Translations under genes and position numbers: made by a program
Part shown: positions 10,348-37,169 of the stretch, one piece after another
Position numbering within the stretch: position 1 is the stretch's first letter
How the letters are laid out: every line of letters begins with the position of its first letter
Notes under the pieces: generated by a model
Database searches by the model: none
Seen by the model: the letters and a program-made list of their open reading frames with translations, nothing else
Told to the model about the DNA's origin: nothing
From: a virus
Lineage: Duplodnaviria > Heunggongvirae > Uroviricota > Caudoviricetes
Virus record (IMG/VR): IMGVR_UViG_2869924733_000008
Direction: 5' to 3' (one strand)
DNA: 39,122 nucleotides

Positions 10348-11800
10348 TGAGGTAGCCTGAGTTTAACGGACACTCCTTCCTGAAATAGAATGGCATCAGA
10401 AGGAGCTAATAATGAGCAGAAAAACCCAACGTTACTCTAAAGAGTTCAAAGCCGAAGCTGTCAGAACGGTTCTTGAAAATCAACTTTCGATCAGTGAAGG
10501 CGCTTCCCGATTATCCCTTCCTGAAGGCACTTTAGGACAATGGGTTACCGCCGCCAGAAAAGGGCTCGGTACTCCTGGTTCCCGCACGGTGGCTGAACTG
10601 GAATCTGAAATTCTGCAACTGCGTAAGGCGTTAAATGAAGCTCGCCTTGAGCGAGATATATTAAAAAAAGCAACTGTAGATTCAATTGGTCAACGCAACA
10701 GTTATGTGAAAACATGGGGTTGCGGAGGTTTTTTGAATGAGACGAACATTTACAGCAGAGGAAAAAGCCTCTGTTTTTGAACTATGGAAGAACGGAACAG
10801 GCTTCAGTGAAATAGCGAATATCCTGGGTTCAAAACCCGGAACGATCTTCACTATGTTAAGGGATACTGGCGGCATAAAACCCCATGAGCGTAAGCGGGC
10901 TGTAGCTCACCTGACACTGTCTGAGCGCGAGGAGATACGAGCTGGTTTGTCAGCCAAAATGAGCATTCGTGCGATAGCTACTGCGCTGAATCGCAGTCCT
11001 TCGACGATCTCACGTGAAGTTCAGCGTAATCGGGGCAGACGCTATTACAAAGCTGTTGATGCTAATAACCGAGCCAACAGAATGGCGAAAAGGCCAAAAC
11101 CGTGCTTACTGGATCAAAATTTACCATTGCGAAAGCTTGTTCTGGAAAAGCTGGAGATGAAATGGTCTCCAGAGCAAATATCAGGATGGTTAAGGCGAAC
11201 AAAACCACGTCAAAAAACGCTGCGAATATCACCTGAGACAATTTATAAAACGCTGTACTTTCGTAGCCGTGAAGCGCTACACCACCTGAATATACAGCAT
11301 CTGCGACGGTCGCATAGCCTTCGCCATGGCAGGCGTCATACCCGCAAAGGCGAAAGAGGTACGATTAACATAGTGAACGGAACACCAATTCACGAACGTT
11401 CCCGAAATATCGATAACAGACGCTCTCTGGGGCATTGGGAGGGCGATTTAGTCTCAGGTACAAAAAACTCTCATATAGCCACACTTGTAGACCGAAAATC
11501 ACGTTATACGATCATCCTTAGACTCAGGGGCAAAGATTCTGTCTCAGTAAATCAGGCTCTTACCGACAAATTCCTGAGTTTACCGTCAGAACTCAGAAAA
11601 TCACTGACATGGGACAGAGGAATGGAACTGGCCAGACATCTAGAATTTACTGTCAGCACCGGCGTTAAAGTTTACTTCTGCGATCCTCAGAGTCCTTGGC
11701 AGCGGGGAACAAATGAGAACACAAATGGGCTAATTCGGCAGTACTTTCCTAAAAAGACATGTCTTGCCCAATATACTCAACATGAACTAGGCTGTGTCCC

Positions 11801-12316
11801 TTAATTACGTAAGCGTTGATAAAAGAGTCGGATGCAGCCCAGTTTCACCATCGCCAGGTAATTTCTCGCCGTTTTGTCGTAACGCGTGGCGATGCGGCGA
11901 TATTCTTTCAGCCGCCCAAAGCACCGTTCAACGACATTACGATTGCAGTACGCATCACGATCAAGCTGTGCACGTCCATCCGATGCCATTTTCTCATTTG
12001 ACTTTCGGGGGATTACTGCCTTTATACCGTTATTTTTCAGCTCGTTGCGCAATGCGCGCCCTGAATACGCTTTATCAGCCAGTACCGCATGTCCACGGCG
12101 TTTCATGCTGCCGTTCTGACGCTGAACGCCAATCCCGTCCAGAAGTCGTTGCGCGAACTGGCTTTCATGAGCTTGTCCGGGGCTTAGCACGATATTTAAC
12201 GGGAGGCCACTTCCGTCTGTTGCCAGATGGATTTTGGTGCCAAAACCGCCGCGAGAGCGACCCAGCCCATTATCTCCGTCGATATCGGGATGTTTTTTTG
12301 AGCACCGGCGGCACAT
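11801..12316 (-). CDS. IS5-family transposase orfB (DDE region; probably joined to orfA by frameshifting)
   Basis: Overlaps orfA by about 120 nt in another frame; contains DKAYSG, typical of DDE transposases of this group. Confidence 0.5.
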   Translation of the reverse strand: MCRRCSKKHPDIDGDNGLGRSRGGFGTKIHLATDGSGLPLNIVLSPGQAHESQFAQRLLDGIGVQRQNGSMKRRGHAVLADKAYSGRALRNELKNNGIKAVIPRKSNEKMASDGRAQLDRDAYCNRNVVERCFGRLKEYRRIATRYDKTARNYLAMVKLGCIRLFYQRLRN

Positions 12317-12645
12317 TTCAGCGCCCGGATATTACTGCCATCCAGCGCGGTGGCAGACCAGTCAATAAAGCCGTTTGCATCAAGTAGCGAAAGCAACCTG
12401 TTGAAAATAATATTAATCACGCCTGACTTTGACCATCGGTTAAAGCGGTTATAAACAGTTTTCCATGACCCATATCGTTCGGGTAAATCGCGCCATGGTG
12501 CACCGGAACATAACACCCAGAACATGCCATTGATGATTTTACGGTGCTCAGCCCATGGGCGTCCGGCCCGTGGTGTGGCGGGTTCAGGAGGTAACAGGGG
12601 CTTGATGATGGTCCATGCCTCATCGGGAAGGTCGTAGCGAGCCAT
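12196..12645 (-). CDS. IS5-family transposase orfA (149 aa)
   Basis: Contains ..PWRDLPERYGSWKTVYNRFNRWSKSGV.., a motif typical of the N-terminal part of IS5-family (IS427-group) transposases. Confidence 0.6.
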   Translation of the reverse strand: MARYDLPDEAWTIIKPLLPPEPATPRAGRPWAEHRKIINGMFWVLCSGAPWRDLPERYGSWKTVYNRFNRWSKSGVINIIFNRLLSLLDANGFIDWSATALDGSNIRALKCAAGAQKNIPISTEIMGWVALAAVLAPKSIWQQTEVASR

Positions 12646-12890
12646 AGTTCAATATGTTGTGTAAACAGACAGTTACTATAGCTCAGATGATTAAGGGACA
12701 CAGCCTAGATCTGGTTGCTGCTCAGCTAAACAACAGACCGAGAAAGACACTGAAGTTCAAAACACCGAAAGAGATAATTGAAAGGGGTGTTGCATTGACA
12801 GATTGAATCTACAACAGCGTATTTTGCACAGGAGTCGCTGAAAAATACGCGTTAATCGAACAATGGCGACAACAATTTCCCATTGAAGCG

Positions 12891-13709
12891 ATGTGTCAGG
12901 TATTTGGTGTATCCAGGAGCGGTTATTACAACTGGGTACAGCATGAACCCTCAGACAGAAAACAAAGTGATGAGCGGCTAAAACTGGAGATTAAGGTGGC
13001 ACATATCCGCACTCGCGAAACATATGGAACCCGGCGGCTCCAGACGGAGCTGGCAGAGAATGGCATCATCGTTGGTCGTGACCGACTGGCACGTCTTCGT
13101 AAGGAGCTAAGGCTACGCTGTAAGCAGAAACGCAAGTTCAGAGCGACTACGAACCCGAACCACAATCTGCCAGTTGCGCCAAATCTGCTGAACCAGACGT
13201 TCGCTCCTACAGCACCAAATCAGGTCTGGGTGGCGGACCTGACGTATGTTGCCACACAGGAGGGATGGTTGTACCTCGCTGGCATCAAAGATGTTTATAC
13301 GTGCGAAATTGTCGGCTACGCCATGGGAGAGCGCATGACAAAAGAGCTGACAGGTAAAGCCCTGTTTATGGCGCTCAGGAGCCAGCGCCCACCTGCCGGG
13401 CTAATCCACCACTCTGATCGAGGTTCACAGTACTGCGCATACGATTACCGGGTCATACAGGAGCAGTTTGGTCTGAAAACATCAATGTCGCGTAAAGGTA
13501 ACAGTTACGACAACGCTCCGATGGAAAGCTTCTGGGGAACGCTGAAAAATGAGAGCCTGAGCCACTATCGTTTTAATAACCGGGATGAAGCCATCTCAGT
13601 AATACGGGAATACATTGAGATTTTCTACAATCGTCAGCGTCGTCACTCTCGTCTGGGGAATATCTCCCCGGCAGCCTTCAGGGAAAAATATCATCAGATG
13701 GCTGCTTAA
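12891..13709 (+). CDS. IS600 orfB (transposase catalytic part, 272 aa)
   Basis: [25 protein letters not shown]... with DDE-type motifs (..[11 protein letters not shown].., ..[10 protein letters not shown]..); follows orfA of the same element. Confidence 0.8.
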   Translation: MCQVFGVSRSGYYNWVQHEPSDRKQSDERLKLEIKVAHIRTRETYGTRRLQTELAENGIIVGRDRLARLRKELRLRCKQKRKFRATTNPNHNLPVAPNLLNQTFAPTAPNQVWVADLTYVATQEGWLYLAGIKDVYTCEIVGYAMGERMTKELTGKALFMALRSQRPPAGLIHHSDRGSQYCAYDYRVIQEQFGLKTSMSRKGNSYDNAPMESFWGTLKNESLSHYRFNNRDEAISVIREYIEIFYNRQRRHSRLGNISPAAFREKYHQMAA

Positions 13710-13752
13710 AAAAAGAACAAATGGTAGTGTCCGCTATTGCCAGTACACCTCA

Positions 13753-15064
13753 TTGTTAATCTGTTTCTTCTGCGCCTCCGTCAGTGTCACCCCTTCACGG
13801 ATCCCTCCCCAGCGTTTGTACTGCTGGATAACGTCACTCATTGACGCTGCAACCAGCGCCCGCCCTTCATTGTTGTAGGGGATCGTCTGGTTTGACTTGA
13901 ATAACGCGATCACCGCCCCCTGCAAACTGGCATTCAGCCAGATTTGCCCGCAGAAACTGTCCAGCCATTTAAAATCACCGGTAATAGTGCCATCCGCCCA
14001 GTAATCTTCCACCACACTGTTTTCCGCATATTTTCCGTAGAAATTGTAACCTGCGGCGATCAGCGCATCATAATCGCTGCCACTGGTAACATCAGCGGCC
14101 AGCCCCTCATACTCGCGGAACTTGAATGATACACACCCCTCTGGTCGGACAAAATCAAGGCACGCTGCATACCCCAGTACCGCTGCAGCCCGGTTACCAT
14201 CAGTCGCGAAAACAGGTACAACAGAGCTGTAGTTATTGACAGCAATTATCTGGTAAGCGATGTGTTCAGTACTGCCTTTTACTCTGGCGTTGCCGCTGGT
14301 TGTCCATGCCACATAAAAGTAACGCTTGCCCTGCCCGTTTGCCCATGCAGAAAACGCCAGGTGTTGCTCGTCAGTGACCTCAGATACCGTGGAAAAACCC
14401 GCCCATTGCTGGGAAGCGGCCTTAATGGCTGCCATTGTGTCAGGGACATCAGATACAGGCGCGCCCCGGGATATCACCGCACCGGTGTTACTGGTCATCT
14501 TCAGGAGTTCTGTGCCGATCCACTGCCGAACGTTATCGTGGTACTCCCGGGTTTCGCCCCGGCGACAGTAATGACAAAAGCATTCTGTGTGGTATCGAAT
14601 ACCACTGTAGCCACTGCTGCGGTCAGCGCTGTCTGTAGTGCCGTTGCAGCAGCGGCGAAGCTGGCGACACCGTTAAAATTCACTTCAATGCTGACGCTTT
14701 TCCCGTTAATACTCAGCATCAGCGTGCCGGAAAGTTTTTGTAGCTGTTCAACAGTCGCGCCCTTAAACGAACCGCTACGTAACCAGGCCGCCGATGGGGC
14801 AGGACTGAAACGGGAAAACAACAATTGCCCCGGCGTCCTGGTGGCATTTTTGAAGCCCTGGAAATAAAGCTGAGCGCGTGCGTACTCATCGGATAATGCA
14901 CCAAAATACGCGGCCACATCATCCGGAGAGGAAAACGGAACCACAGTGCCGACCGGAAGTAACGGATTACTGGTCAACAGCAGGCCGTTAAGATCGACGG
15001 CATTACCCGCCACAGCCAGCACACCGGGATTTATCTGTACATCTTTACTGAGTGGAATTGGCAT
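13753..15064 (-). pseudogene. Tail sheath protein gene, frameshifted and 3'-truncated by IS600
   Basis: Two ORFs in different frames (14501-15064 and 13734-14498) switch near 14498-14503. The last five codons and the stop of the downstream ORF lie inside IS600. Sheath assignment is by size, position and N-terminal pattern (recall). Confidence 0.5.
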
Positions 15065-15590
15065 TATCAGCCTCCGTTGTCCGGGTGATCACGTTGTCAA
15101 AAAACATCAGGGAAGTTGTGACCACAGGGTTAATCTGCATCTGAATATCAAGCGTCCAGCGCGGTTCATACTGTTGCTGACCGTTGGGGAATGTGGTGTT
15201 AAAGGGCTCTGAGCAATACAGCGGGGAAATCAGCCCACCGCCCTGCCGGAAAAGCCGTACGGAAAATTCAGACCGGAAAAGCGTTGCCAGCACCTGCGCG
15301 TTATCTGCCGCGTGAGGGCCGTAGAAATCAAGCTGGCAACGCCATTTTGTGGTACGGGTGATATGCTGAGAGCCCTCACCAGCCTGCGCTGGCGCAGAAT
15401 ATGCCACTACCGCAGTGGATAATCCGGTAACATCAATGCCCGTCATGGTGATGAAATTCCCCTGAGGCATCGGGACCTGGTTCTGCTGCGTTCGTTCAAT
15501 CCCGGCATCAGAAAAAAGCCCCCGGAGATAATCACCGAGGGCCTGATAAAGAGCGCTTTCCGTAACGGAGAGGGTCACACCTGAAGGCAT
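15045..15590 (-). CDS. Phage structural-module protein, function unknown (neck/tail completion position)
   Basis: 181-aa ORF, tightly packed with overlapping start/stop in the head-tail joining region. Confidence 0.4.
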
Positions 15591-15940
15591 ACAATAACCC
15601 TCGTCCAGTCAGGCCAGATTTCCGGTACCTCAATCACCAGCCACGTTTCATCGCCAATAACAAATTTATCGCCTCCCTGTTGCCGGGCACGGTTAAGCCC
15701 GCACCAGTTACCATCGGTATACAATGTGGCGAAAACTCCCTGCTGGTTAAGATTATCAAGATGACGTAAATCAGCCTGGGTGACAGCCTGCTTTTGCACC
15801 CTGACAGAAACCGGATCTTCATACTCAGGTACGCGGGAATAATCTGCCTGCTGTGTACTCCCGCGGGAACGATAAACCAGCGCGTCTGTAAAGGGATTTA
15901 CCCGACGTACTGCGCCGGAAACAATACCGTGAAAGTTCAT
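15575..15940 (-). CDS. Phage structural-module protein, function unknown
   Basis: 121-aa ORF with ATGA overlap to the upstream gene. Confidence 0.4.
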   Translation of the reverse strand: MNFHGIVSGAVRRVNPFTDALVYRSRGSTQQADYSRVPEYEDPVSVRVQKQAVTQADLRHLDNLNQQGVFATLYTDGNWCGLNRARQQGGDKFVIGDETWLVIEVPEIWPDWTRVIVCLQV

Positions 15941-16521
15941 TTTTTGCCCCCGTCTACAGAATAATCAACGCTGTCCATCATATGTCCGGTTTCAATAAGC
16001 GGGTTGTTAAAACCCTTTTGCCGGGCAGTGGATGCAGCGTTGGGCGGACTTTCCCAGTCGCGAACAGACATCTGCAACTGCCCTTTGATATGTTCTCCCA
16101 TACACACCAGAGCGGTCGCAGTATCAAAATCATTCGCCCGTAATAAGGTCGCCATTTTTTCGCCCCATTCGGGACTTTTATGTTCGATCATCTTACGGAA
16201 GAACGGACGGGGGGGAATGGTGACCGTGTGCTCAGGAATAACCACATCCTGAACAAAATTCCCTTTACCGGCTTTGACAAAGCGGTGCCCGGTTTCTCCC
16301 GTTTTTTCGTTATAGCGAAAGTGGAGCGTCTGCTCACGGGCGGGTATGACCGCTCTTCCACCAAACTCCTGAACTGCGGCAATATAAGCCACTGACGTAC
16401 CGTCAGGGTAAGTTGCTCCCTCAAGAAAACCCACTTTGAGTTTTTTACCCAATGAAAGGTTCGCGGCAACCTGTTTCAGCTTCTGCCGGAACTGTTTGCC
16501 ACCTGTGACTTTATTTACCAT
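15937..16521 (-). CDS. Head-tail connector protein (HK97 gp10-like, tentative)
   Basis: Probable start is the internal ATG at 16521 ([11 protein letters not shown]...); the longer ORF to 16791 would overlap the upstream gene. Family call is from weak recalled similarity. Confidence 0.4.
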
Positions 16522-16969
16522 CGACGCCCCTCCCGTATCCCCGGTAATAATGCCCCGGATATCGCGAAGGTGACCCCCCGGAATGATACTGCATTGAGCG
16601 GTATGGCGCTGTCGCCTGCCAGTAGTCAGCACCCCAGGGGGTCTGGAGATACCACCACGACGCATCATTACTGCCGCTATTATCCACCGATACCGATACA
16701 GAACCTTCCGACGCACTGGTGATACGCCCCACCAGACCAGCCTGCCCGTCTCTCCCGTTTCCCAGCCCCCGCAATGCGCACAGATGCGCAACCAGCAGGA
16801 ACAGAAGCTGTTCCCGCTCCTTCAGGTCGGTAACCGGACTGTCGTCCGTGTTATCCTGGTACAACGCGGTCGCCTGGTTAAACACCGCCGTCAGTAGCTC
16901 CGGTGTCACCGTGGAAAACTCCGGGTACAGACTGACAAACATCCGACAGTCAAACATCACCGTACCCAT
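16511..16969 (-). CDS. Head completion/connector protein (DUF4054-like)
   Basis: 152-aa ORF in the conserved slot after the capsid gene; N-terminal ..[14 protein letters not shown].. pattern (recall). Confidence 0.4.
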
Positions 16970-16974
16970 AGCGT

Positions 16975-17322
16975 TTACTCCTGAGGTTTACCCATCACTT
17001 CATCATTGCGGTTAACGCCCGGAGCCGGATTTTTCTGCGGCAGCGGTTCAAGGCCGGATTTAACGGCTTTCTGCTCCGTAGCCTGCGAGACTGCACTGTT
17101 CGCCTTATCCTGCGCAAAAATAACGCCATTTTTCACATAAGGTTGCTGTCCGTGCTCCGCCAGCCAGGCGTCAAAAAACACCTTATCGACCTGCGTCAGA
17201 CCATAGCCCCCCACAATTTTAACCGCGTTATTCCGCCAGCCTGTCACCTGAACCCGTTTCTGCCCCACTTCCAGCACCAGACCGTTCGGCAGTTTACAGC
17301 CCACTGTTACCATTTCAGCCAT
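16975..17322 (-). CDS. Small phage head-associated protein, function unknown
   Basis: 115-aa ORF between the capsid and connector genes. Confidence 0.35.
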
Positions 17323-17325
17323 AAC

Positions 17326-18354
17326 TCACACCCCAAGCATTTGTGCATACGCCAGCGGCTGGCGAATAATCGCCCCCCAGGTACCAGCGGATTTTTTCTG
17401 TTTCCAGGAAGACGTATCTACCCCTACCGCATGGGCGCGCATTTTTTCAGTGAAAGCGCAATAGCCTGTATCCTGTTCACCCAGACGCTCCGCGATAAGC
17501 TGTACCAGCTCGCCAGCGTCAGAGGTGTATTCCACCGCCGTTTCAATGGTCATCGCCGGGAAATTTTTCGCCAGCAGATCGGACACGTTAACCCTGTACT
17601 GGTTTGTTTTGGTGAGGTTCACCTCTGCCAGCGGCGACATGCACAGTTTCATTTTGTCGGTACGCTCAATATGACCGTTAGTCTGTTTCACCAGTTGCTT
17701 AAAGAGTTTCACGATATCGTCATACACGCCCTGTCCGTCCTTGTCGTCCCACTTCAGTTTACCGTCAACGGTATCCGGGGTGATTGGTGCAGATAACGAC
17801 GGATCATTCAGCAAACCGTAGTTCGTCAGTCCGGCAATACCGTAGAAATAGGACTTATTCTGGAACTTATTCAGCGTCAGTGCTGACGCCACGTTCAGCT
17901 CTGCCGCCCAGCCAATACGGGCTGCGCCGTACATCTCCAGCTCACGTTCGCCCCATACGGTGAAGGTCTGGAAGTGATAGCTCTGGCGCGGTACCCAGTT
18001 GACGTTTGCGCTTACCACCCCGTTGTTGCTGTAATCCCCGTAGGAACTCACCTCCCCGTCAGATTCTGCAATCGGGAATTGTGCCGACAGTGTCGTCCAG
18101 TCACCTTTTTTGGTTTCGCCCAGAATCTGAGCGGCTTTCATCGGCGTCACCAGCACGCGGATCAGTTCTGGCTCAACGTAATTGGTGAAATACGCAGGGA
18201 TACCGCTGTTAGCCGCTGTGACCAGCGCAGGCTGCGCGTCCATCGCCAGTCCGTAATCGGCGGCGTACTCCTTCGGCAAATAAGCCTGTGCTCCGGGAAG
18301 AATAATCCCGTAGTCGCGACTTGCCGTCGCATAATGCTGTTTAAATTTATTCAT
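17326..18354 (-). CDS. Major capsid protein (putative)
   Basis: 342-aa ORF in the canonical position downstream of the portal/scaffold genes; size and composition fit a major capsid protein. Confidence 0.5.
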
Positions 18355-23754: not shown

Positions 23755-24283
23755 TGAGGTGTACTGGCAATAGCGGACACTACCATTTGTTCTTTTTTTA
23801 AGCAGCCATCTGATGATATTTTTCCCTGAAGGCTGCCGGGGAGATATTCCCCAGACGAGAGTGACGACGCTGACGATTGTAGAAAATCTCAATGTATTCC
23901 CGTATTACTGAGATGGCTTCATCCCGGTTATTAAAACGATAGTGGCTCAGGCTCTCATTTTTCAGCGTTCCCCAGAAGCTTTCCATCGGAGCGTTGTCGT
24001 AACTGTTACCTTTACGCGACATTGATGTTTTCAGACCAAACTGCTCCTGTATGACCCGGTAATCGTATGCGCAGTACTGTGAACCTCGATCAGAGTGGTG
24101 GATTAGCCCGGCAGGTGGGCGCTGGCTCCTGAGCGCCATAAACAGGGCTTTACCTGTCAGCTCTTTTGTCATGCGCTCTCCCATGGCGTAGCTAGACTGG
24201 CCCCCTGAATCTCCAGACAACCAGTATCACTTAAATAAGTGATAGTCTTAATACTAGTTTTTAGACTAGTCATTGGAGTACAG

Positions 24284-24649
24284 ATGATTGATGTCTTAGG
24301 GCCGGAGAAACGCAGACGGCGTACCACACAGGAAAAGATCGCAATTGTTCAGCAGAGCTTTGAACCGGGGATGACGGTCTCCCTCGTTGCCCGGCAACAT
24401 GGTGTAGCAGCCAGCCAGTTATTTCTCTGGCGTAAGCAATACCAGGAAGGAAGTCTTACTGCTGTGGCCGCCGGAGAACAGGTTGTTCCTGCCTCTGAAC
24501 TTGCTGCCGCCATGAAGCAGATTAAAGAACTCCAGCGCCTGCTCGGCAAGAAAACGATGGAAAATGAACTCCTCAAAGAAGCCGTTGAATATGGACGGGC
24601 AAAAAAGTGGATAGCGCACGCGCCCTTATTGCCCGGGGATGGGGAGTAA
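24284..24649 (+). CDS. insC: IS2 InsC (orfA, 121 aa)
   Basis: [47 protein letters not shown]... matches recalled IS2 InsC. Confidence 0.9.
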
Positions 24650-25512
24650 GCTTAGTCAGCCGTTGTCTCCGGGTGTCGCGTGCGCAGTTGCACGTCATTC
24701 TCAGACGAACCGATGACTGGATGGATGGCCGCCGCAGTCGTCACACTGATGATACGGATGTGCTTCTCCGTATACACCATGTTATCGGAGAGCTGCCCAC
24801 GTATGGTTATCGTCGGGTATGGGCGCTGCTTCGCAGACAGGCAGAACTTGATGGTATGCCTGCGATCAATGCCAAACGTGTTTACCGGATCATGCGCCAG
24901 AATGCGCTGTTGCTTGAGCGAAAACCTGCTGTACCGCCATCGAAACGGGCACATACAGGCAGAGTGGCCGTGAAAGAAAGCAATCAGCGATGGTGCTCTG
25001 ACGGGTTCGAGTTCTGCTGTGATAACGGAGAGAGACTGCGTGTCACGTTCGCGCTGGACTGCTGTGATCGTGAGGCACTGCACTGGGCGGTGACTACCGG
25101 CGGCTTCAACAGTGAAACAGTACAGGACGTCATGCTGGGAGCGGTGGAACGCCGCTTCGGCAACGATCTTCCGTCGTCTCCAGTGGAGTGGCTGACGGAT
25201 AATGGTTCATGCTACCGGGCTAATGAAACACGCCAGTTCGCCCGGATGTTGGGACTTGAACCGAAGAACACGGCGGTGCGGAGTCCGGAGAGTAACGGAA
25301 TAGCAGAGAGCTTCGTGAAAACGATAAAGCGTGACTACATCAGTATCATGCCCAAACCAGACGGGTTAACGGCAGCAAAGAACCTTGCAGAGGCGTTCGA
25401 GCATTATAACGAATGGCATCCGCATAGTGCGCTGGGTTATCGCTCGCCACGGGAATATCTGCGGCAGCGGGCTTGTAATGGGTTAAGTGATAACAGATGT
25501 CTGGAAATATAG
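24607..25512 (+). CDS. insD: IS2 InsD (orfB, 301 aa)
   Basis: [41 protein letters not shown]... matches recalled IS2 InsD. Confidence 0.9.
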
Positions 25513-26029
25513 GGGCAAATCCAGTAGCCGACAATTTCGCACGTATAAACATCTTTGATGCCAGCGAAGTACAACCATCCCTCCTGTGTGGCAACATACG
25601 TCAGGTCCGCCACCCAGACCTGATTTGGTGCTGTAGGAGCGAACGTCTGGTTCAGCAGATTTGGCGCAACTGGCAGATTGTGGTTCGGGTTCGTAGTCGC
25701 TCTGAACTTGCGTTTCTGCTTACAGCGTAGCCTTAGCTCCTTACGAAGACGTGCCAGTCGGTCACGACCAACGATGATGCCATTCTCTGCCAGCTCCGTC
25801 TGGAGCCGCCGGGTTCCATATGTTTCGCGAGTGCGGATATGTGCCACCTTAATCTCCAGTTTTAGCCGCTCATCACTTTGTTTTCTGTCTGAGGGTTCAT
25901 GCTGTACCCAGTTGTAATAACCGCTCCTGGATACACCAAATACCTGACACATCGCTTCAATGGGAAATTGTTGTCGCCATTGTTCGATTAACGCGTATTT
26001 TTCAGCGACTCCTGTGCAAAATACGCTGT

Positions 26030-27250
26030 TGTAGATTCAATCTGTCAATGCAACACCCCTTTCAATTATCTCTTTCGGTGTTTTGAACTTCAGTGTCTTT
26101 CTCGGTCTGTTGTTTAGCTGAGCAGCAACCAGATCTAGTTCATGTTGAGTATATTGGGCAAGACATGTCTTTTTAGGAAAGTACTGCCGAATTAGCCCAT
26201 TTGTGTTCTCATTTGTTCCCCGCTGCCAAGGACTCTGAGGATCGCAGAAGTAAACTTTAACGCCGGTGCTGACAGTAAATTCTAGATGTCTGGCCAGTTC
26301 CATTCCTCTGTCCCATGTCAGTGATTTTCTGAGTTCTGACGGTAAACTCAGGAATTTGTCGGTAAGAGCCTGATTTACTGAGACAGAATCTTTGCCCCTG
26401 AGTCTAAGGATGATCGTATAACGTGATTTTCGGTCTACAAGTGTGGCTATATGAGAGTTTTTTGTACCTGAGACTAAATCGCCCTCCCAATGCCCCAGAG
26501 AGCGTCTGTTATCGATATTTCGGGAACGTTCGTGAATTGGTGTTCCGTTCACTATGTTAATCGTACCTCTTTCGCCTTTGCGGGTATGACGCCTGCCATG
26601 GCGAAGGCTATGCGACCGTCGCAGATGCTGTATATTCAGGTGGTGTAGCGCTTCACGGCTACGAAAGTACAGCGTTTTATAAATTGTCTCAGGTGATATT
26701 CGCAGCGTTTTTTGACGTGGTTTTGTTCGCCTTAACCATCCTGATATTTGCTCTGGAGACCATTTCATCTCCAGCTTTTCCAGAACAAGCTTTCGCAATG
26801 GTAAATTTTGATCCAGTAAGCACGGTTTTGGCCTTTTCGCCATTCTGTTGGCTCGGTTATTAGCATCAACAGCTTTGTAATAGCGTCTGCCCCGATTACG
26901 CTGAACTTCACGTGAGATCGTCGAAGGACTGCGATTCAGCGCAGTAGCTATCGCACGAATGCTCATTTTGGCTGACAAACCAGCTCGTATCTCCTCGCGC
27001 TCAGACAGTGTCAGGTGAGCTACAGCCCGCTTACGCTCATGGGGTTTTATGCCGCCAGTATCCCTTAACATAGTGAAGATCGTTCCGGGTTTTGAACCCA
27101 GGATATTCGCTATTTCACTGAAGCCTGTTCCGTTCTTCCATAGTTCAAAAACAGAGGCTTTTTCCTCTGCTGTAAATGTTCGTCTCATTCAAAAAACCTC
27201 CGCAACCCCATGTTTTCACATAACTGTTGCGTTGACCAATTGAATCTACA
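26030..27250 (-). mobile_element. IS30 (1221 bp) inside IS600 copy 2
   Basis: IS30 terminal repeats at both ends; 2-bp duplication (GT on the plus strand) at 26028-29 and 27251-52. Confidence 0.9.
26037..27188 (-). CDS. insI: IS30 transposase (383 aa)
   Basis: [38 protein letters not shown]... full length, identical to the other intact copies. Confidence 0.95.
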   Translation of the reverse strand: MRRTFTAEEKASVFELWKNGTGFSEIANILGSKPGTIFTMLRDTGGIKPHERKRAVAHLTLSEREEIRAGLSAKMSIRAIATALNRSPSTISREVQRNRGRRYYKAVDANNRANRMAKRPKPCLLDQNLPLRKLVLEKLEMKWSPEQISGWLRRTKPRQKTLRISPETIYKTLYFRSREALHHLNIQHLRRSHSLRHGRRHTRKGERGTINIVNGTPIHERSRNIDNRRSLGHWEGDLVSGTKNSHIATLVDRKSRYTIILRLRGKDSVSVNQALTDKFLSLPSELRKSLTWDRGMELARHLEFTVSTGVKVYFCDPQSPWQRGTNENTNGLIRQYFPKKTCLAQYTQHELDLVAAQLNNRPRKTLKFKTPKEIIERGVALTD

Positions 27251-27952
27251 GTTGCTTTTTTTAATATATCTCGCTCAAGGCGAGCTTCATTTAACGCCTT
27301 ACGCAGTTGCAGAATTTCAGATTCCAGTTCAGCCACCGTGCGGGAACCAGGAGTACCGAGCCCTTTTCTGGCGGCGGTAACCCATTGTCCTAAAGTGCCT
27401 TCAGGAAGGGATAATCGGGAAGCGCCTTCACTGATCGAAAATTGATTTTCAAGAACCGTTCTGACAGCTTCGGCTTTGAACTCTTTAGAGTAACGTTGGG
27501 TTTTTCTGCTCATTATTAGCTCCTTCTGATGCCATTCTATTTCAGGAAGGAGTGTCCGTTAAACTCAGGCTACCTCAGGTCTTCCGACGATTCTGTCATT
27601 GTTCATTAAGCAAAAGTTTCCATGCTGTTTGTGCTTATTCTAAGCAACCGGGCAGCATCATACGGGGCAATTATGGCCGCATTACCATACATGCAACTGT
27701 ACATAGCTAATTACCTGGCTGACACCATGCATTTGTCAGCAGAGGAGCACGGCGCGTATTTGTTGCTGATGTTCAATTACTGGCAAACAGGAAAGCCAAT
27801 ACCCAAAAACAGGTTGGCAAAAATTGCCCGTCTGACTAACGAGCGATGGGTTGATGTTGAACCATCCTTGCGGGAGTTTTTTTGTGATAACGGCGACGAA
27901 TGGATGCATCTTCGGATTGAGGAAGATCTGGCATCTGTCAGTGGATTTGCCC

Positions 27953-28858
27953 CTATATTTCCAGACATCTGTTATCACTTAACCCATTACAAGCCCGCTG
28001 CCGCAGATATTCCCGTGGCGAGCGATAACCCAGCGCACTATGCGGATGCCATTCGTTATAATGCTCGAACGCCTCTGCAAGGTTCTTTGCTGCCGTTAAC
28101 CCGTCTGGTTTGGGCATGATACTGATGTAGTCACGCTTTATCGTTTTCACGAAGCTCTCTGCTATTCCGTTACTCTCCGGACTCCGCACCGCCGTGTTCT
28201 TCGGTTCAAGTCCCAACATCCGGGCGAACTGGCGTGTTTCATTAGCCCGGTAGCATGAACCATTATCCGTCAGCCACTCCACTGGAGACGACGGAAGATC
28301 GTTGCCGAAGCGGCGTTCCACCGCTCCCAGCATGACGTCCTGTACTGTTTCACTGTTGAAGCCGCCGGTAGTCACCGCCCAGTGCAGTGCCTCACGATCA
28401 CAGCAGTCCAGCGCGAACGTGACACGCAGTCTCTCTCCGTTATCACAGCAGAACTCGAACCCGTCAGAGCACCATCGCTGATTGCTTTCTTTCACGGCCA
28501 CTCTGCCTGTATGTGCCCGTTTCGATGGCGGTACAGCAGGTTTTCGCTCAAGCAACAGCGCATTCTGGCGCATGATCCGGTAAACACGTTTGGCATTAAT
28601 CGCAGGCATACCATCAAGTTCTGCCTGTCTGCGAAGCAGCGCCCATACCCGACGATAACCATACGTGGGCAGCTCTCCGATAACATGGTGTATACGGAGA
28701 AGCACATCCGTATCATCAGTGTGACGACTGCGGCGGCCATCCATCCAGTCATCGGTTCGTCTGAGAATGACGTGCAACTGCGCACGCGACACCCGGAGAC
28801 AACGGCTGACTAAGCTTACTCCCCATCCCCGGGCAATAAGGGCGCGTGCGCTATCCAC
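27953..28858 (-). CDS. insD: IS2 InsD (orfB, 301 aa)
   Basis: Same protein as 24607-25512, apart from one substitution. Confidence 0.9.
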
Positions 28859-29181
28859 TTTTTTGCCCGTCCATATTCAACGGCTTCTTTGAGGAGTTCA
28901 TTTTCCATCGTTTTCTTGCCGAGCAGGCGCTGGAGTTCTTTAATCTGCTTCATGGCGGCAGTAAGTTCAGAGGCAGGAACAACCTGTTCTCCGGCGGCCA
29001 CAGCAGTAAGACTTCCTTCCTGGTATTGCTTACGCCAGAGAAATAACTGGCTGGCTGCTACACCATGTTGCCGGGCAACGAGGGAGACCGTCATCCCCGG
29101 TTCAAAGCTCTGCTGAACAATTGCGATCTTTTCCTGTGTGGTACGCCGTCTGCGTTTCTCCGGCCCTAAGACATCAATCAT
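28816..29181 (-). CDS. insC: IS2 InsC (orfA, 121 aa), cut off from the IS2 left end by IS630
   Basis: [13 protein letters not shown]...; the longer ORF to 29238 is read-through from the IS630 end. Confidence 0.85.
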
Positions 29182-29198
29182 CTGTACTCCAATGACTA

Positions 29199-30351
29199 AA
29201 TAGCTGCGCTTAATACCGCTACACTTTTGCCAGTCCATGTTTGCCTCCGGGGAATGGGCTGACGGTTTCCATAAAATGGCGAACTTTTTTCAACAGTTGC
29301 CACATTGAGCGGCACTGATGATTACGCGTTATTGTGTCGTGAAGTGCCTGCCATAGCCGTTCAACATGATTCACCCATGGCGAGTAAACCGGCTGATAAA
29401 TGACCCTGAACTTCGGGTTCTCCTTCAGCCAGCTCTGTGTTTCCCGGCTTTTGTGGATAATGTAGTTGTCCACGATCAGCGTGATGGTTTTCGCCCGACG
29501 GTATGTCGCTTTAAGCCGCTTCAGCAGGCTGATGAACAGCGCCGAACTTTTGCTGTTGCCGCCCACATAGCTGACTTTACCTGTCCCGCTGTGCAGCGCT
29601 CCGGCCAGATAATATTTTTCATTCTGTCCCGGCGTGACCACCCGTTTTTGCTGTCCGCGCAGTTGCCAGTCCGCACCGATTTTGGGATAAAGATGGATAT
29701 CCACTTCATCTTCATAAAAGACCGGATGCTCTGCGCTGCATTCGTCCAGTGCTTTATGGATTGCTGCCATCTTTTCATCTTTATGCGGGTCACGGATACG
29801 CAGAGTTGGCGCAGCCCTTCGCCACACAATCCCCGCAGACGGCAACCAGCGGCGAACGGTTCCGGCATTTAACTGGCAACCGGTTATCTCATTGATTTTT
29901 ATTGCCAGCAGTTCTGTACTCCAGCGTGAACGCTGGTAGACAAAGTCGCCGGGAGAATGTTTTACCAGCTCACGTAACAGTGTGCAGATATGCTCAAACG
30001 GCCAGCGACGGGCACGCCCGGCAGGTAATGATTTCAGTCCCTCAACACCCGACTGCGTGAACCAGTTAATCCAGCGTCCAACAGAGGAACGGGCGCAGCA
30101 GAGCGTTCTGGCAACGTCGCTGACACGGTCGCCCCGGTGCAGCATCAGCATGGCAGTCAGTCTGCGGGCATAATTTTTATCGTGTGTTTTATGGATGGCT
30201 TTCTGCATCAGGCGTCGTTCGTCACGGGAAATTGGTGCTATGATCGGCATTGCTCAGTCCGGTTGGTGATTTGTTTTGATTTGGCGATTGATCAGATCGC
30301 ACAATCCGGGCTAAGTTCCCTCAAAGTGATCTACTATTCCGCGCAGCTATT
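29199..30351 (-). mobile_element. IS630 (1153 bp) inserted in the IS2 left-end region
   Basis: Terminal repeats AATAGCTGCGC.../...GCGCAGCTATT; TA duplication inside the IS2 sequence ..AGACTAGTC.. (CTAG target). Confidence 0.85.
29219..30250 (-). CDS. IS630 transposase (Tc1/mariner superfamily, 343 aa)
   Basis: [31 protein letters not shown]... matches recalled IS630 transposase; size is exact. Confidence 0.85.
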
Positions 30352-30536
30352 TAGTCTAAAAACTAGTATTAAGACTATCACTTATTTAAGTGATACTGGT
30401 TGTCTGGAGATTCAGGGGGCCAGTCTAGTCAGAGAAAAATTAACCAAAAAATCAGCCGCAGGAAAAGCATCTGTTCAGGCCAGAAGAAGCAGAAAGGAAG
30501 CAGATGTTCAAACAAAACAAGAGAGAAATTTAACAG

Positions 30537-31289
30537 GTGTTCGAACATGATGCCAACACAAAGGCAACTAATAAAGATACAGATAAAGCTCTAAAAACAG
30601 ATCTAACCCATCCCAAACCCTTCCCTTCCGGAAGGGAGTTTCGGGATTTTGTGGCTGGAGTGCTTGAGGGGAGATTATCTGGCGGTACTGCAGCGGAATT
30701 TTGTAATTCTGCGGTGGTTGCGTTGCAGGCTGCTGGCCTGGATGTCTGTCGTGAGTATCCGGTGCCAGAGCGTGGTGACGGTTGCGGAGGGCGGATTGAT
30801 ATCGTCGTGACTGACAGGAACGGTGTCCGGTGTGGGATCGAGCTTGACCGAAATTCTCCGCGACAGAAATCACTGCTCAAAATCGGTGCTGTTGAAACCG
30901 GGATATGTGTCTTGCGGCGCAGTGATATCGCAAGGCACACCGAGCAGGGAATTCTGGTTATCGGTGGGGCTGTTCGCCAGAAAAAATTTGACCCGTTGTC
31001 AGTTGATCTGCCCGACTGGTTGCCAGAAACACTCTGGCATGAGTGGGTCCAGTTCAGGCAGGCATTGCGAAAACCGATTCGAACGGAGCAGGGCGCTAAC
31101 GGGGCGATACGGGAACTGGAAAAATTCCGTCAGCAGGGTTTTACACCTGAGCAGGTGATTCGACACAGCATCGCCAATGAATACCATGGTCTGTTCGCGC
31201 CGAAAGGTGTTCGGCCTGAGACGTTGCTCCGACAGGTTAACACCGTCTCGTTGCCGGACAGTGCGATCCCGCCAGGCTTCAGGGGGTAA
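30537..31289 (+). CDS. Phage replication protein with DnaT-like C-terminal domain
   Basis: C-terminus ..VNTVSLPDSAIPPGFRG parallels the recalled E. coli DnaT C-terminus (..NTVSEPDSQIPPGFRG). Apparent GTG start overlaps the stop of the upstream DUF1376 ORF; the two may be one frameshifted gene or two genes. Confidence 0.5.
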   Translation: MFEHDANTKATNKDTDKALKTDLTHPKPFPSGREFRDFVAGVLEGRLSGGTAAEFCNSAVVALQAAGLDVCREYPVPERGDGCGGRIDIVVTDRNGVRCGIELDRNSPRQKSLLKIGAVETGICVLRRSDIARHTEQGILVIGGAVRQKKFDPLSVDLPDWLPETLWHEWVQFRQALRKPIRTEQGANGAIRELEKFRQQGFTPEQVIRHSIANEYHGLFAPKGVRPETLLRQVNTVSLPDSAIPPGFRG

Positions 31290-31295
31290 CAGACC

Positions 31296-32042
31296 ATGAA
31301 AAATATTGCGACAGGAGGCGTTCTGGAGCGTATCCGCAGACTGACCCCACCACATGTAACCGCCCCATTCAGAACGGTTGCGGAGTGGCGCGAGTGGCAA
31401 CTTGCTGAAGGCCAGAAACGTTGCGAGGAGATCAACCGCCTGAATCGTCAGTTGCGGGTGGAAAAAATCCTGAACCGCTCCGGCATCCAGCCGTTGCACC
31501 GGAAGTGTTCGTTTGCGAATTACCGGGCGCAGAACGACGGTCAGCGACATGCACTGAGTCAGGCGAAATCCATAGCTGACGAACTGATGACAGGCTGTAC
31601 GAATTTTGTGTTCAGCGGTAAGCCCGGCACCGGAAAAAATCATCTTGCAGCCGCGATTGGCAACCGGCTGATGGCGAAGGGGCGTAGCGTGATTATCGTC
31701 ACCGTGTCCGATGTCATGAGCGTGTTGCATGAGAGCTACGACAACGGCAAATCCGGTGAAAAATTTTTACAGGAGCTTTGTGGTGTTGACCTGCTGGTCC
31801 TGGATGAAATTGGCATGCAGCGGGATACGAAAAACGAGCAGGTGGTACTGAACCAGATTGTTGATCGCCGGACGGCATCGTTACGCGGTGTGGGGATGCT
31901 GACAAATATTAACCATGCAGCGATGAATACACTTCTCGGCGAGCGGGTGATGGATCGCATGGTCATGAACGGCGGGCGCTGGGTGAATTTTAACTGGGAG
32001 AGCTGGCGTCCGAATGTTAGCCATTCGAGGGTTGTTAAGTAG
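31296..32042 (+). CDS. DnaC-like helicase loader (IstB-type AAA+ ATPase)
   Basis: Walker A GKPGTGKNHLAAAIG and Walker B LLVLDEIG; 248 aa; typical replication-module partner of the DnaT/YdaU-like gene. Confidence 0.85.
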   Translation: MKNIATGGVLERIRRLTPPHVTAPFRTVAEWREWQLAEGQKRCEEINRLNRQLRVEKILNRSGIQPLHRKCSFANYRAQNDGQRHALSQAKSIADELMTGCTNFVFSGKPGTGKNHLAAAIGNRLMAKGRSVIIVTVSDVMSVLHESYDNGKSGEKFLQELCGVDLLVLDEIGMQRDTKNEQVVLNQIVDRRTASLRGVGMLTNINHAAMNTLLGERVMDRMVMNGGRWVNFNWESWRPNVSHSRVVK

Positions 32043-32056
32043 TTTCAGGAGGATTT

Positions 32057-32158
32057 ATGGCGAAACCTTTTACTCCCGAACAGCGGGAAGAACTGAAGAC
32101 GCGAATTGTGGAACTCGTGCATCAGGACGGTCGGGTCACGATTCGGCAGTTGTCAGAT
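32057..32158 (+). pseudogene. Small phage gene truncated after 34 codons by the IS911 end
   Basis: MAKPFTPEQREELKTRIVELVHQDGRVTIRQLSD, then a TGA supplied by the first bases of the IS911 inverted repeat. Confidence 0.4.
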
Positions 32159-32166
32159 TGAAGTGG

Positions 32167-34295
<2,129 letters not shown>

Positions 34296-34527
34296 GTAGC
34301 CTTTTTTAATATTTCATTCTCCATTTCAATGCGTTGTAGCTTTTTCCTCAGCTTACGTATTTCGATTTGTTCTGGTGTTATCGGAGAGGCTTTTGGTGTT
34401 TTGCCCTGACGCTCATCACGCAGTTGTTTGACCCATCTTGTCATTGTGGAAAGGCCAACATCCATAGCTTTGGCGGCATCTGCCTGAGGTGTACTGGCAA
34501 TAGCGGACACTACCATTTGTTCTTTTT

Positions 34528-35346
34528 TTAAGCAGCCATCTGATGATATTTTTCCTTGAAGGCTGCCGGGGAGATATTCCCCAGACGAGAGTGACGACGC
34601 TGACGATTGTAGAAAATCTCAATGTATTCCCGTATTACTGAGATGGCTTCATCCCGGTTATTAAAACGATAGTGGCTCAGGCTCTCATTTTTCAGCGTTC
34701 CCCAGAAGCTTTCCATCGGAGCGTTGTCGTAACAGTTACCTTTACGCGACATTGATGTTTTCAGACCAAACTGCTCCTGTATGACCCGGTAATCGTATGC
34801 GCAGTACTGTGAACCTCGATCAGAGTGGTGGATTAGCCCGGCAGGTGGGCGCTGGCTCCTGAGCGCCATAAACAGGGCTTTACCTGTCAGCTCTTTTGTC
34901 ATGCGCTCTCCCATGGCGTAGCCGACAATTTCGCACGTATAAACATCTTTGATGCCAGCGAGGTACAACCATCCCTCCTGTGTGGCAACATACGTCAGGT
35001 CCGCCACCCAGACCTGATTTGGTGCTGTAGGAGCGAACGTCTGGTTCAGCAGATTTGGCGCAACTGGCAGATTGTGGTTCGGGTTCGTAGTCGCTCTGAA
35101 CTTGCGTTTCTGCTTACAGCGTAGCCTTAGCTCCTTACGAAGACGTGCCAGTCGGTCACGACCAACGATGATGCCATTCTCTGCCAGCTCCGTCTGGAGC
35201 CGCCGGGTTCCATATGTTTCGCGAGTGCGGATATGTGCCACCTTAATCTCCAGTTTTAGCCGCTCATCACTTTGTTTTCTGTCTGAGGGTTCATGCTGTA
35301 CCCAGTTGTAATAACCGCCCCTGGATACACCAAATACCTGACACAT
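34528..35346 (-). CDS. IS600 orfB (272 aa)
   Basis: Same protein as 12891-13709 with three substitutions (S10G, S/C, R/K). Confidence 0.8.
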
Positions 35347-35423
35347 CGCTTCAATGGGAAATTGTTGTCGCCATTGTTCGATTAACGCGTATTTTTCAGC
35401 GACTCCTGTGCAAAATACGCTGT

Positions 35424-36644
35424 TGTAGATTCAATTGGTCAACGCAACAGTTATGTGAAAACATGGGGTTGCGGAGGTTTTTTGAATGAGACGAACATTT
35501 ACAGCAGAGGAAAAAGCCTCTGTTTTTGAACTATGGAAGAACGGAACAGGCTTCAGTGAAATAGCGAATATCCTGGGTTCAAAACCCGGAACGATCTTCA
35601 CTATGTTAAGGGATACTGGCGGCATAAAACCCCATGAGCGTAAGCGGGCTGTAGCTCACCTGACACTGTCTGAGCGCGAGGAGATACGAGCTGGTTTGTC
35701 AGCCAAAATGAGCATTCGTGCGATAGCTACTGCGCTGAATCGCAGTCCTTCGACGATCTCACGTGAAGTTCAGCGTAATCGGGGCAGACGCTATTACAAA
35801 GCTGTTGATGCTAATAACCGAGCCAACAGAATGGCGAAAAGGCCAAAACCGTGCTTACTGGATCAAAATTTACCATTGCGAAAGCTTGTTCTGGAAAAGC
35901 TGGAGATGAAATGGTCTCCAGAGCAAATATCAGGATGGTTAAGGCGAACAAAACCACGTCAAAAAACGCTGCGAATATCACCTGAGACAATTTATAAAAC
36001 GCTGTACTTTCGTAGCCGTGAAGCGCTACACCACCTGAATATACAGCATCTGCGACGGTCGCATAGCCTTCGCCATGGCAGGCGTCATACCCGCAAAGGC
36101 GAAAGAGGTACGATTAACATAGTGAACGGAACACCAATTCACGAACGTTCCCGAAATATCGATAACAGACGCTCTCTGGGGCATTGGGAGGGCGATTTAG
36201 TCTCAGGTACAAAAAACTCTCATATAGCCACACTTGTAGACCGAAAATCACGTTATACGATCATCCTTAGACTCAGGGGCAAAGATTCTGTCTCAGTAAA
36301 TCAGGCTCTTACCGACAAATTCCTGAGTTTACCGTCAGAACTCAGAAAATCACTGACATGGGACAGAGGAATGGAACTGGCCAGACATCTAGAATTTACT
36401 GTCAGCACCGGCGTTAAAGTTTACTTCTGCGATCCTCAGAGTCCTTGGCAGCGGGGAACAAATGAGAACACAAATGGGCTAATTCGGCAGTACTTTCCTA
36501 AAAAGACATGTCTTGCCCAATATACTCAACATGAACTAGATCTGGTTGCTGCTCAGCTAAACAACAGACCGAGAAAGACACTGAAGTTCAAAACACCGAA
36601 AGAGATAATTGAAAGGGGTGTTGCATTGACAGATTGAATCTACA
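35424..36644 (+). mobile_element. IS30 (1221 bp) inside IS600 copy 3, opposite orientation to its host element
   Basis: IS30 terminal repeats; 2-bp duplication at 35422-23 and 36645-46. Confidence 0.9.
35486..36637 (+). CDS. insI: IS30 transposase (383 aa)
   Basis: Full-length, identical protein to the other intact copies. Confidence 0.95.
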   Translation: MRRTFTAEEKASVFELWKNGTGFSEIANILGSKPGTIFTMLRDTGGIKPHERKRAVAHLTLSEREEIRAGLSAKMSIRAIATALNRSPSTISREVQRNRGRRYYKAVDANNRANRMAKRPKPCLLDQNLPLRKLVLEKLEMKWSPEQISGWLRRTKPRQKTLRISPETIYKTLYFRSREALHHLNIQHLRRSHSLRHGRRHTRKGERGTINIVNGTPIHERSRNIDNRRSLGHWEGDLVSGTKNSHIATLVDRKSRYTIILRLRGKDSVSVNQALTDKFLSLPSELRKSLTWDRGMELARHLEFTVSTGVKVYFCDPQSPWQRGTNENTNGLIRQYFPKKTCLAQYTQHELDLVAAQLNNRPRKTLKFKTPKEIIERGVALTD

Positions 36645-37169
36645 GTTGCTTTTTTTAATATATCTCGCTCAAGGCGAGCTTCATTTAACGCCTTACGCAG
36701 TTGCAGAATTTCAGATTCCAGTTCAGCCACCGTGCGGGAACCAGGAGTACCGAGCCCTTTTCTGGCGGCGGTAACCCATTGTCCTAAAGTGCCTTCAGGA
36801 AGGGATAATCGGGAAGCGCCTTCACTGATCGAAAATTGATTTTCAAGAACCGTTCTGACAGCTTCGGCTTTGAACTCTTTAGAGTAACGTTGGGTTTTTC
36901 TGCTCATTATTAGCTCCTTCTGATGCCATTCTATTTCAGGAAGGAGTGTCCGTTAAACTCAGGCTACCTCAGCCACCGTGTATTTCTGGTCAACAACCAG
37001 TTGAGCGGATTCGCGTTTAAACTCTGCGCTAAAATTTCTTTTTTTCATTGGAGCACCTGTGTTGTTCTGAGGTGAGCATATCACCTCTGTTCAGGTGGCC
37101 AAATTCAGTGTGCCACTTCATATCTTAAACTACCGGAATGAACTGCTGCATGGAGAAACGCTTTACCTA

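Follow-up and report, generated by a model that had tools for sequence, protein, structure and literature searches.

ISSfl7 within IS30 within IS600: a three-deep nest of insertion sequences in an IS-eroded prophage

Nested insertion sequences (IS) are routine in Shigella and EIEC genomes, and an element inserted within another is younger than its host element. Stacks of this kind, such as IS-in-IS arrangements in Shigella and nested LTR retrotransposons in maize, lend themselves to relative dating. For IS30, near-palindromic hot spots are used as targets, with the 2-bp target duplication that is a hallmark of the element (PMC9333248), and a 24-bp symmetric target consensus is credited to Olasz et al. 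1998, as cited in PMC9333248. The closest described arrangement is in E. coli K-12, where IS30A interrupts IS911 in the 5.8–6.1 min region (PMC9333248). The locus analysed here, compared with K-12 by description, likewise has IS30 within an IS3-family element, at the orfA end; it differs in that the host is IS600 and that IS30 in turn carries a third element. All three elements are catalogued and nesting of IS is an established phenomenon, while no publication describing IS30 in IS600 was found in our literature search.

The stretch of DNA analysed, referred to here as the window, is 39,122 nucleotides long. The nest is located in an IS-eroded myovirus-type prophage on NCBI chromosome CP027027.1, probably of the Shigella/EIEC lineage. 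Sequence comparison and in silico excision resolved the 3405 bp from 10348 to 13752 into ISSfl7 inside IS30 inside IS600, with the element names based on RefSeq annotation. The features of the nest and its immediate neighbours are as follows.

9410–10347, − strand: left neighbour, a 938-bp IS66-family end fragment, with tnpC cut by IS600 at 10347/10348
10348–10674, + strand: IS600 5′ segment (nt 1–327), comprising the left inverted repeat, then orfA to codon 87
10663–10669, + strand: programmed −1 frameshift heptamer of IS600, A AAA AAA, with IS30 5 nt downstream
10673–10674: AC, left copy of the IS30 target duplication (right copy 12814–12815)
10675–11789, + strand: IS30 5′ segment (nt 1–1115), comprising the left inverted repeat and transposase codons 1–351
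11788–11789: TA, left copy of the ISSfl7 target duplication (right copy 12706–12707)
11790–12705, − strand: ISSfl7 of the IS5 family, 916 bp long and bounded by perfect 16-bp terminal inverted repeats, GGCTGTGTCCCTTAAT
12706–12813, + strand: IS30 3′ segment, comprising the duplicated TA, nt 1116–1221, the final 32 transposase codons and the right inverted repeat
12814–13752, + strand: IS600 3′ segment, comprising the duplicated AC, nt 328–1264, intact orfB (12891–13709) and the right inverted repeat
13753–14498, − strand: right neighbour, a phage tail-sheath-like gene (DUF3383) cut short by IS600

Excision of 918 bp (ISSfl7 and one TA) restored an IS30 identical at 1221 of 1221 positions to the window copies at 26030–27250, 33075–34295 and 35424–36644. 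When this IS30 and one AC were excised in turn, the remainder was a 1264-bp IS600 that agreed at 1262 of 1264 positions, with no gaps, with an intact copy in E. coli O121 201805972. Since both IS30 and IS600 could be rebuilt to the exact base, chance is ruled out as the cause. The initial annotation, made from this DNA alone, had proposed an IS5-family element in IS30 in IS600, and this reading is upheld by the base-exact excision, by RefSeq annotation and by NCBIfam and Pfam matches of all three transposases; the IS600 termini that it placed at 10348 and 13752 were recovered by the reconstruction. On this comparison of sequences, we consider the three-deep nest very probably genuine.

Regions of near-identical IS copies are where short-read assemblers fail, and the window is such a region, with three copies of IS600, four of IS30 and many of other IS, at 99–100% identity. 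Placement of the IS30::ISSfl7 copy among the four IS30 and three IS600 copies in 39 kb is based on assemblies. Nevertheless, it is extremely unlikely that the nest is an assembly chimera of reads from separate IS600, IS30 and ISSfl7 copies: its inner junctions carry the family-specific duplications (AC and TA) and its excision is base-exact, which is not the case for mis-joins, and the record is a single contig of 5.04 Mb. When the truncated IS30 transposase was looked up as an exact protein, three contigs or assemblies were returned. Across 13 kb, contig L010 matches the window with 100% identity, while a different contig of 5.10 Mb, L011, has the same 3405-bp nest with four SNPs and with other flanks on both sides. 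The presence of the same internal junctions in this second, independent assembly argues against mis-assembly.

The IS30 layer had been placed at 10675–12813 with a 2-bp AC duplication, and both the limits and the duplication were borne out. Its 5′ segment is 100% identical to the three intact copies in the window and contains HTH_38 and rve domains. In the intact copies, a 383-aa ORF matches NF033563 with 276 bits (cut-off 80), and the inverted repeats agree with each other in 23 of their 26 positions. The interrupted ORF of the nested copy (10737–11804) stops four codons inside ISSfl7.

The left side of the target within IS600 carries an A-run and the right side a T-run, with 7 of 12 positions symmetric. 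Three IS600 copies in the window have IS30 at this same site with the AC duplication, one of them with IS30 inverted. The IS911::IS30 of the window (33075–34295) is interrupted at the homologous point, ATATTAAAAAAGGCT[AC] in IS911 and ATATTAAAAAAAGCA[AC] in IS600, just past the frameshift heptamer and again with AC duplicated. Junctions were counted across 5426 complete E. coli genomes. The IS600::IS30 junction in the orientation seen here was present in 1284 and that with IS30 inverted in 854, counts that mix vertical inheritance with new events, while the IS911::IS30 junction was present in 1331. Independent IS30 events are strictly demonstrated in three instances, namely the two orientations in IS600 and the one in IS911. 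The site in IS600 appears to be an insertion hot spot for IS30, a status that comes from recurrence and not from a consensus match. It resembles described IS30 hot-spot targeting in the 2-bp duplication, the nearly palindromic target and the use of both orientations. A match to the lambda LHS hot spot was set aside as evidence, the similarity being a loose one of A-run and T-run. The nest is ordinary because a large proportion of E. coli genomes have IS30 at the same spot in IS600, and taken alone it is of little importance, marking a dead prophage, a dead IS600 and, probably, a dead IS30. The recurrent IS30 site past the IS3-family frameshift signal, on the other hand, offers a quantifiable example of IS-on-IS targeting and is perhaps worth a short note.

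The rebuilt IS600 has TGAGGT...ACCTCA ends, which fit the imperfect TG...CA repeats of the IS3 family, and the intact reference copy is annotated as ‘IS3-like element IS600 family transposase’. A −1 slip at the heptamer of the rebuilt element yields an OrfAB of 385 aa, equal to the joined CDS of 1157 nt in the annotation of the E. coli O121 201805972 IS600, while OrfA alone is 100 aa. In the nest, the 5′ segment is 100% identical to this intact IS600 and matches PF01527 (HTH_Tnp_1), and a Pfam profile search of the 3′ segment identified rve, rve_2, rve_3 and HTH_21. With IS30 positioned between orfA plus the slippery site and orfB, no OrfAB fusion transposase can form, and the orfA ORF (10412–10780) continues from IS600 into IS30, with a predicted read-through product of 122 aa. 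We predict that this IS600 copy is non-autonomous despite its two intact ends. The initial annotation had both the IS600 orfA and the IS30 transposase inactivated; for IS600, the key loss is the uncoupling of orfA from orfB and not simply that of orfA, and the cut IS30 transposase, with 351 of 383 native residues, is probably inactive.

It could be speculated that the preferred target of IS30 coincides with the conserved frameshift window of IS3-family elements such as IS600 and IS911 (ILKKA-coding, A6–7G), that IS30 systematically disables these elements by separating orfA from orfB, and that OrfA-only composites persist as trans-acting OrfA regulators that damp IS3-family transposition. Such OrfA-only composites are found in up to approximately 40% of complete E. 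coli genomes. We consider this scenario unlikely; if true, IS30 in IS3-family elements would represent IS-versus-IS interference instead of random nesting.

A target duplication had been proposed for every layer. This holds for IS30 (AC) and ISSfl7 (TA) and fails for the outer IS600, where a 3-bp duplication was sought at the flanks and not found (CAG on the left versus TTG on the right). Other IS600 copies do have one, GCC for that at 34485–36971 of the same window and GTT for that in E. coli O121 201805972. That the nested copy has none points to its later rearrangement rather than to a different family, and means that it cannot be demonstrated to have come to this exact position by simple transposition. 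The neighbouring sequences are also disrupted. The IS66 fragment on the left matches NF033517 at profile positions 125–386 only and has its true terminus, GTAAGCG..., at 9410. The homologous prophage of EIEC CFSAN029787 continues unbroken past window position 9409, and approximately 4 kb of prophage between 9409 and 13753 is missing by comparison (positions 1175–5206 of that sequence, L001, are absent from the window). The outer IS600 is tied to a deletion or rearrangement and joins the truncated IS66 element to the truncated sheath gene. The IS600 in the sheath gene of E. coli O121 201805972 was considered as a candidate for the same insertion and rejected, as it is an uninterrupted copy 27 bp distant and is flanked by its GTT duplication.

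Alternatively, the nest or the IS600::IS30 composite could move as one unit via the IS600 ends, with OrfAB provided in trans, and could have arrived preassembled. Both IS600 inverted repeats are intact, the 2487-bp IS600::IS30 composite adjoins different genes in different E. coli strains, and the full triple nest has different flanks in two genomes. Nevertheless, we regard movement as a unit as improbable, given that the 3-bp duplication expected of IS600 is missing from both copies of the triple nest (the flanks in L011 are GAC/AAT) and that both genomes have the same IS66-family tnpC as left neighbour, only 147 bp apart, a pattern more in keeping with deletion or recombination than with fresh transposition. 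Furthermore, repeated independent IS30 insertions at the hot spot explain the multi-locus spread equally well, because both orientations exist.

The initial annotation read the nest as a record of three ordered transposition events. The relative order stands: as an insertion is younger than the element that it interrupts, IS600 came before IS30 and IS30 before ISSfl7. The events need not have been local, however, as IS600::IS30 is common and the same stack lies between other flanks in another genome, so the nesting order should not be read as local history. Like other stacks used for relative dating, this one gives an order, but here it is an order and not a location, since recombination between identical IS can shift a stack to new flanks, as in the window versus L011.

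The history that we favour has three steps. IS30 would have entered IS600 at the near-palindromic hot spot ...TTAAAAAAAGCA[AC]AGCGTATTTTG..., 5 nt past the frameshift heptamer, with duplication of AC, to give a composite that is probably old, widespread and not peculiar to this locus. ISSfl7 would then have entered the IS30 transposase gene at an ACTAG site close to the 3′ end of that gene, duplicating TA and replacing the last 32 codons. At a stage that may precede or follow either insertion, the flanks of IS600 would have been reshuffled, with loss of the 3-bp duplication and of approximately 4 kb of prophage tail genes, possibly by IS600–IS600 recombination or by IS-mediated adjacent deletion.

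Among these steps, only the entry of ISSfl7 into IS30 is rare. The IS30::ISSfl7 junction was found in 0 of the 5426 complete E. coli genomes and in three assemblies overall, and an exact-pattern scan of GTDB species-representative genomes gave 0 matches for the junction and 0 for the ISSfl7 end; this junction could be of use as a lineage marker. ISSfl7 might instead have entered another IS30 elsewhere, and the interrupted allele could then have reached this locus through homologous recombination or gene conversion among IS30 or IS600::IS30 copies. Identical repeats of 1.1–1.4 kb flank the ISSfl7 site and would permit such an exchange, and at least one exchange of flanks has clearly taken place at the nest. 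The exact-protein look-up, on the other hand, revealed one IS30::ISSfl7 place per genome, and the window contains no second interrupted IS30. Copying from elsewhere adds a step and explains nothing more, and we judge it very unlikely, preferring entry of ISSfl7 into the IS30 of the composite.

The inner element had been described as 914 bp long (11791–12704), with 15-bp inverted repeats and a 4-bp CTAG duplication. An element of approximately 0.9 kb with perfect inverted repeats is indeed present in IS30, with boundaries one base further out on each side. In eight independent ISSfl7 copies, TA is duplicated in all eight and a 4-bp repeat, CTAG, in three, leading us to reject the CTAG model; a 3-bp CTA model fails in one copy. 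As only TA is common to all eight, the element is 916 bp (11790–12705), with a 16-bp repeat and a TA duplication. The length sum of exactly 3405 bp, already given in the initial annotation, is unaffected, as 916 + 2 equals 914 + 4. At this nest, CTAG is literally present on both sides of ISSfl7. The IS630 in the same window likewise duplicates TA at CTAG.

The two ORFs of ISSfl7, orfA (12645–12196) and orfB (12316–11801), both lie on the − strand, and a −1 frameshift at an A7 run, read as T7 at 12293–12299 of the + strand, connects them. NF033580 matches both, with 132.7 and 175.8 bits (cut-off 110) over profile positions 2–112 and 112–257, and matches to PF13340 and PF01609 were also obtained. 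With its DUF4096 OrfA, DDE_Tnp_1 OrfB and A7 −1 frameshift, the element resembles the two-ORF frameshifted members of the IS5 family that use TA/CTAG-like targets, and it further shares with them GG...CC ends, the TA duplication and the target A-C/T-TA-R; its subgroup within IS5 may be of the IS427 or IS1031 type. RefSeq annotates close copies in other EIEC records, one of them 910/916 identical, as ‘IS5-like element ISSfl7 family transposase’ and assigns them a programmed frameshift. The nested copy is 915/916 identical to those in EIEC CFSAN029787 and FDAARGOS_943, and has one missense change, R to C, beside the Y(2)R(3)E motif.

We read the sequence from 10200 to 13900 directly and cut out the proposed parts by script. 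This confirmed the IS600 ends, the IS30 ends, the AC duplication and the 3405-bp sum reported in the initial annotation, and located an element of approximately 0.9 kb with perfect terminal inverted repeats within the IS30. The parts of the nest are:

10348-13752: IS600 (copy A), starting TGAGGTAGCC... and ending ...ACACCTCA (sequence read)
10675-12813: IS30, from TGTAGATTCAATTGG... to ...GATTGAATCTACA (sequence read)
10673-10674 and 12814-12815: AC on either side of IS30 (sequence read)
11790-12705: ISSfl7, 916 bp, ORFs on the minus strand, 16-bp inverted repeat
11788-11789 and 12706-12707: TA duplication of ISSfl7 (eight-copy comparison)

Reconstitution of IS30 and IS600 was the decisive test. 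Without the inner 918 bp, the IS30 is identical at 1221 of 1221 positions to the window copies at 26030-27250, 33075-34295 and 35424-36644, while removal of IS30 and AC from the IS600 leaves 1264 bp with two differences and no gaps relative to the intact annotated IS600 of E. coli O121 201805972. This cannot be chance. The three-level nest is real and was for the most part described correctly, but it is ordinary; all its parts match catalogued elements and known behaviour. Its frameshifting matches that of IS3-family elements, the hot-spot targeting and 2-bp duplication of the IS30 layer match known IS30, and ISSfl7 matches the TA or CTAG-like targeting of the IS5 family. The nearest documented analogue is IS911::IS30A (IS911 interrupted by IS30A) of K-12.

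The inner element had been proposed as 914 bp with a CTAG duplication. This is one of several parses allowed locally, since the inverted repeat can be lengthened by taking in flanking bases, so we set the ends by comparing the window copy with seven other independent copies. TA lies directly outside GGCTGTG...CACAGCC in all eight, and the 4-bp repeat is confined to three of them. This makes the element 916 bp long with a TA duplication and leaves the total length unchanged. The target is roughly A-C/T-TA-R. Megablast found the element in only 46 of 5426 complete E. coli genomes, including EIEC strains and their pINV plasmids, and the closest copies differ from that in the window at 1 of 916 positions. 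Some copies are annotated as ‘IS5-like element ISSfl7 family transposase’ with a programmed frameshift. Two overlapping minus-strand ORFs score above the cut-off of NF033580 (NCBIfam, IS5 family; profile positions 2-112 and 112-257), with PF13340 in the first and PF01609 in the second, and are joined via a -1 shift at an A7 run (T7 on the plus strand, 12293-12299). The window copy carries a single missense change, R to C, at 11947 (orfB codon 124, in DRDAY[R/C]NRNVVE), which adjoins the Y(2)R(3)E catalytic signature; four other copies, compared as DNA, have R at this codon, and the protein was checked against the ISSfl7 copy in L004.

The initial annotation also held that the nest inactivates the IS600 orfA and the IS30 transposase. 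Reconstructed IS600 encodes a 100-aa OrfA and, by a -1 slip at A AAA AAA (10663-10669), a 385-aa OrfAB that equals the annotated joined CDS. The IS30 insertion lies 5 nt downstream of this heptamer. OrfA does lose its last 13 residues and continues into IS30 as a 122-aa ORF (10412-10780), but the weightier effect is that orfB is placed beyond the reach of frameshifting, so that this copy can make no transposase of its own despite two intact ends. The IS30 transposase is cut by ISSfl7 after residue 351 of 383; it keeps its HTH and rve domains but lacks the C-terminus and the final 13 positions of the NF033563 family core, and is likely to be inactive.

A target duplication of its own had been claimed for each layer. 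This fails for the outer IS600, which is flanked by CAG and TTG, whereas the 3-bp duplication normal for IS600 is seen in other copies (GCC at 34485-36971, GTT in the O121 copy). An IS66-family element contributes its terminal 938 bp on the left (true end GTAAGCG at 9410, tnpC cut at 10347), and a truncated phage sheath-like DUF3383 gene lies on the right. The window is an IS-eroded myovirus-like prophage that shares 97-99.6% with EIEC strains. Compared with the homologous prophage of EIEC CFSAN029787 (L001, 1175-5206), approximately 4 kb of baseplate, tape-measure-like, tube and sheath genes are missing between 9409 and 13751, and the IS66 end fragment and the nest stand in their place. Given this loss and the lack of a duplication, the IS600 flanks have been rearranged. 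IS600-IS600 recombination or an IS-mediated adjacent deletion may have been responsible.

The junction of IS30 with ISSfl7 was present in 0 of 5426 complete E. coli genomes and had no match in GTDB species representatives. A search for exact matches to the truncated IS30 product (355 aa) identified three contigs. CP027027.1 (GCA_002943855.1), either the source of the window or a duplicate of that source, matches window 4737-17804 at 100% identity. In PSSP01000001.1 (GCA_002968135.1) the 3405-bp nest recurs at 5612-9016 with four SNPs, and both flanks differ: on the left it again adjoins an IS66-family tnpC, at a point 147 bp deeper into that gene, and on the right a sensor-kinase-like gene. 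This copy likewise lacks a 3-bp duplication (GAC on one side, AAT on the other). Identical internal junctions in two independent multi-megabase contigs make mis-assembly very unlikely. The nest had been taken to record three ordered transpositions; the nesting stands, but the stack has changed neighbours and its order is no record of events at the window locus.

Self-comparison of the window revealed two further IS600::IS30 composites (copies B and C) and a related insertion:

23755-27577, minus strand: copy B, with the insertion dinucleotide and the relative orientation of IS30 both matching the nest
34485-36971: copy C, with IS30 inverted but inserted at this same dinucleotide, AC again being duplicated
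33075-34295: IS30 in IS911, at the position homologous to the IS600 site, again with AC duplicated

Copy B also holds an IS2 (24193-25523, 5-bp GTAGC duplication) within orfB, is flanked by GAG and GGT without a 3-bp duplication, and cuts off a phage ORF (22466-23770). The target sites are ATATTAAAAAAGGCT[AC]CGCG in IS911 and ATATTAAAAAAAGCA[AC]AGCG in IS600, the latter partly palindromic (A-run left, T-run right, 7 of 12 positions symmetric). IS30 prefers near-palindromic hot spots, makes 2-bp duplications and interrupts IS911 in K-12 (PMC9333248). We searched the 5426 genomes with 100-bp junction queries, counting only matches of at least 80% coverage (cross-match between orientations can reach 76% at most). 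The IS600::IS30 junction was found in 1284 genomes in the orientation of the nest and in 854 with IS30 inverted, and the IS911::IS30 junction in 1331, large counts that mix inheritance with recurrence. The 2487-bp composite adjoins differing genes from strain to strain. At least three independent IS30 insertions are demonstrated, and the layer of IS30 in IS600 arose at a hot spot. The sole mildly new point is quantitative, namely that IS30 very often lies just downstream of the IS600/IS911 frameshift signal across E. coli; within an incomplete coverage of the literature, we found no publication stating this location for IS600.

Other nests in the window match or exceed this one in depth. A minus-strand IS911 (32159-37120), which reconstructs to 1249 bp, holds the IS30 at 33075-34295 (AC) and the IS600 at 34485-36971 (GCC); the latter in turn contains the IS30 at 35424-36644, whose orientation is opposite to that in the other two composites. 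This makes another three-level nest. An IS2 (27942-30428, 5-bp GTCAG duplication) is interrupted by an IS630 (approx. 29199-30351; CTAG target, TA duplication), a second copy of which lies at approximately 37170-38322. An IS110-family transposase gene (4081-5277; NF033542, 239 bits) sits amid prophage tail-fibre and baseplate genes. Between IS2 and IS911, a short non-IS island (30429-32158) encodes a DnaC-like ATPase (31296-32042; NF009043, 507 bits) and an unassigned 250-aa ORF (30537-31289), and is probably left over from phage replication genes.
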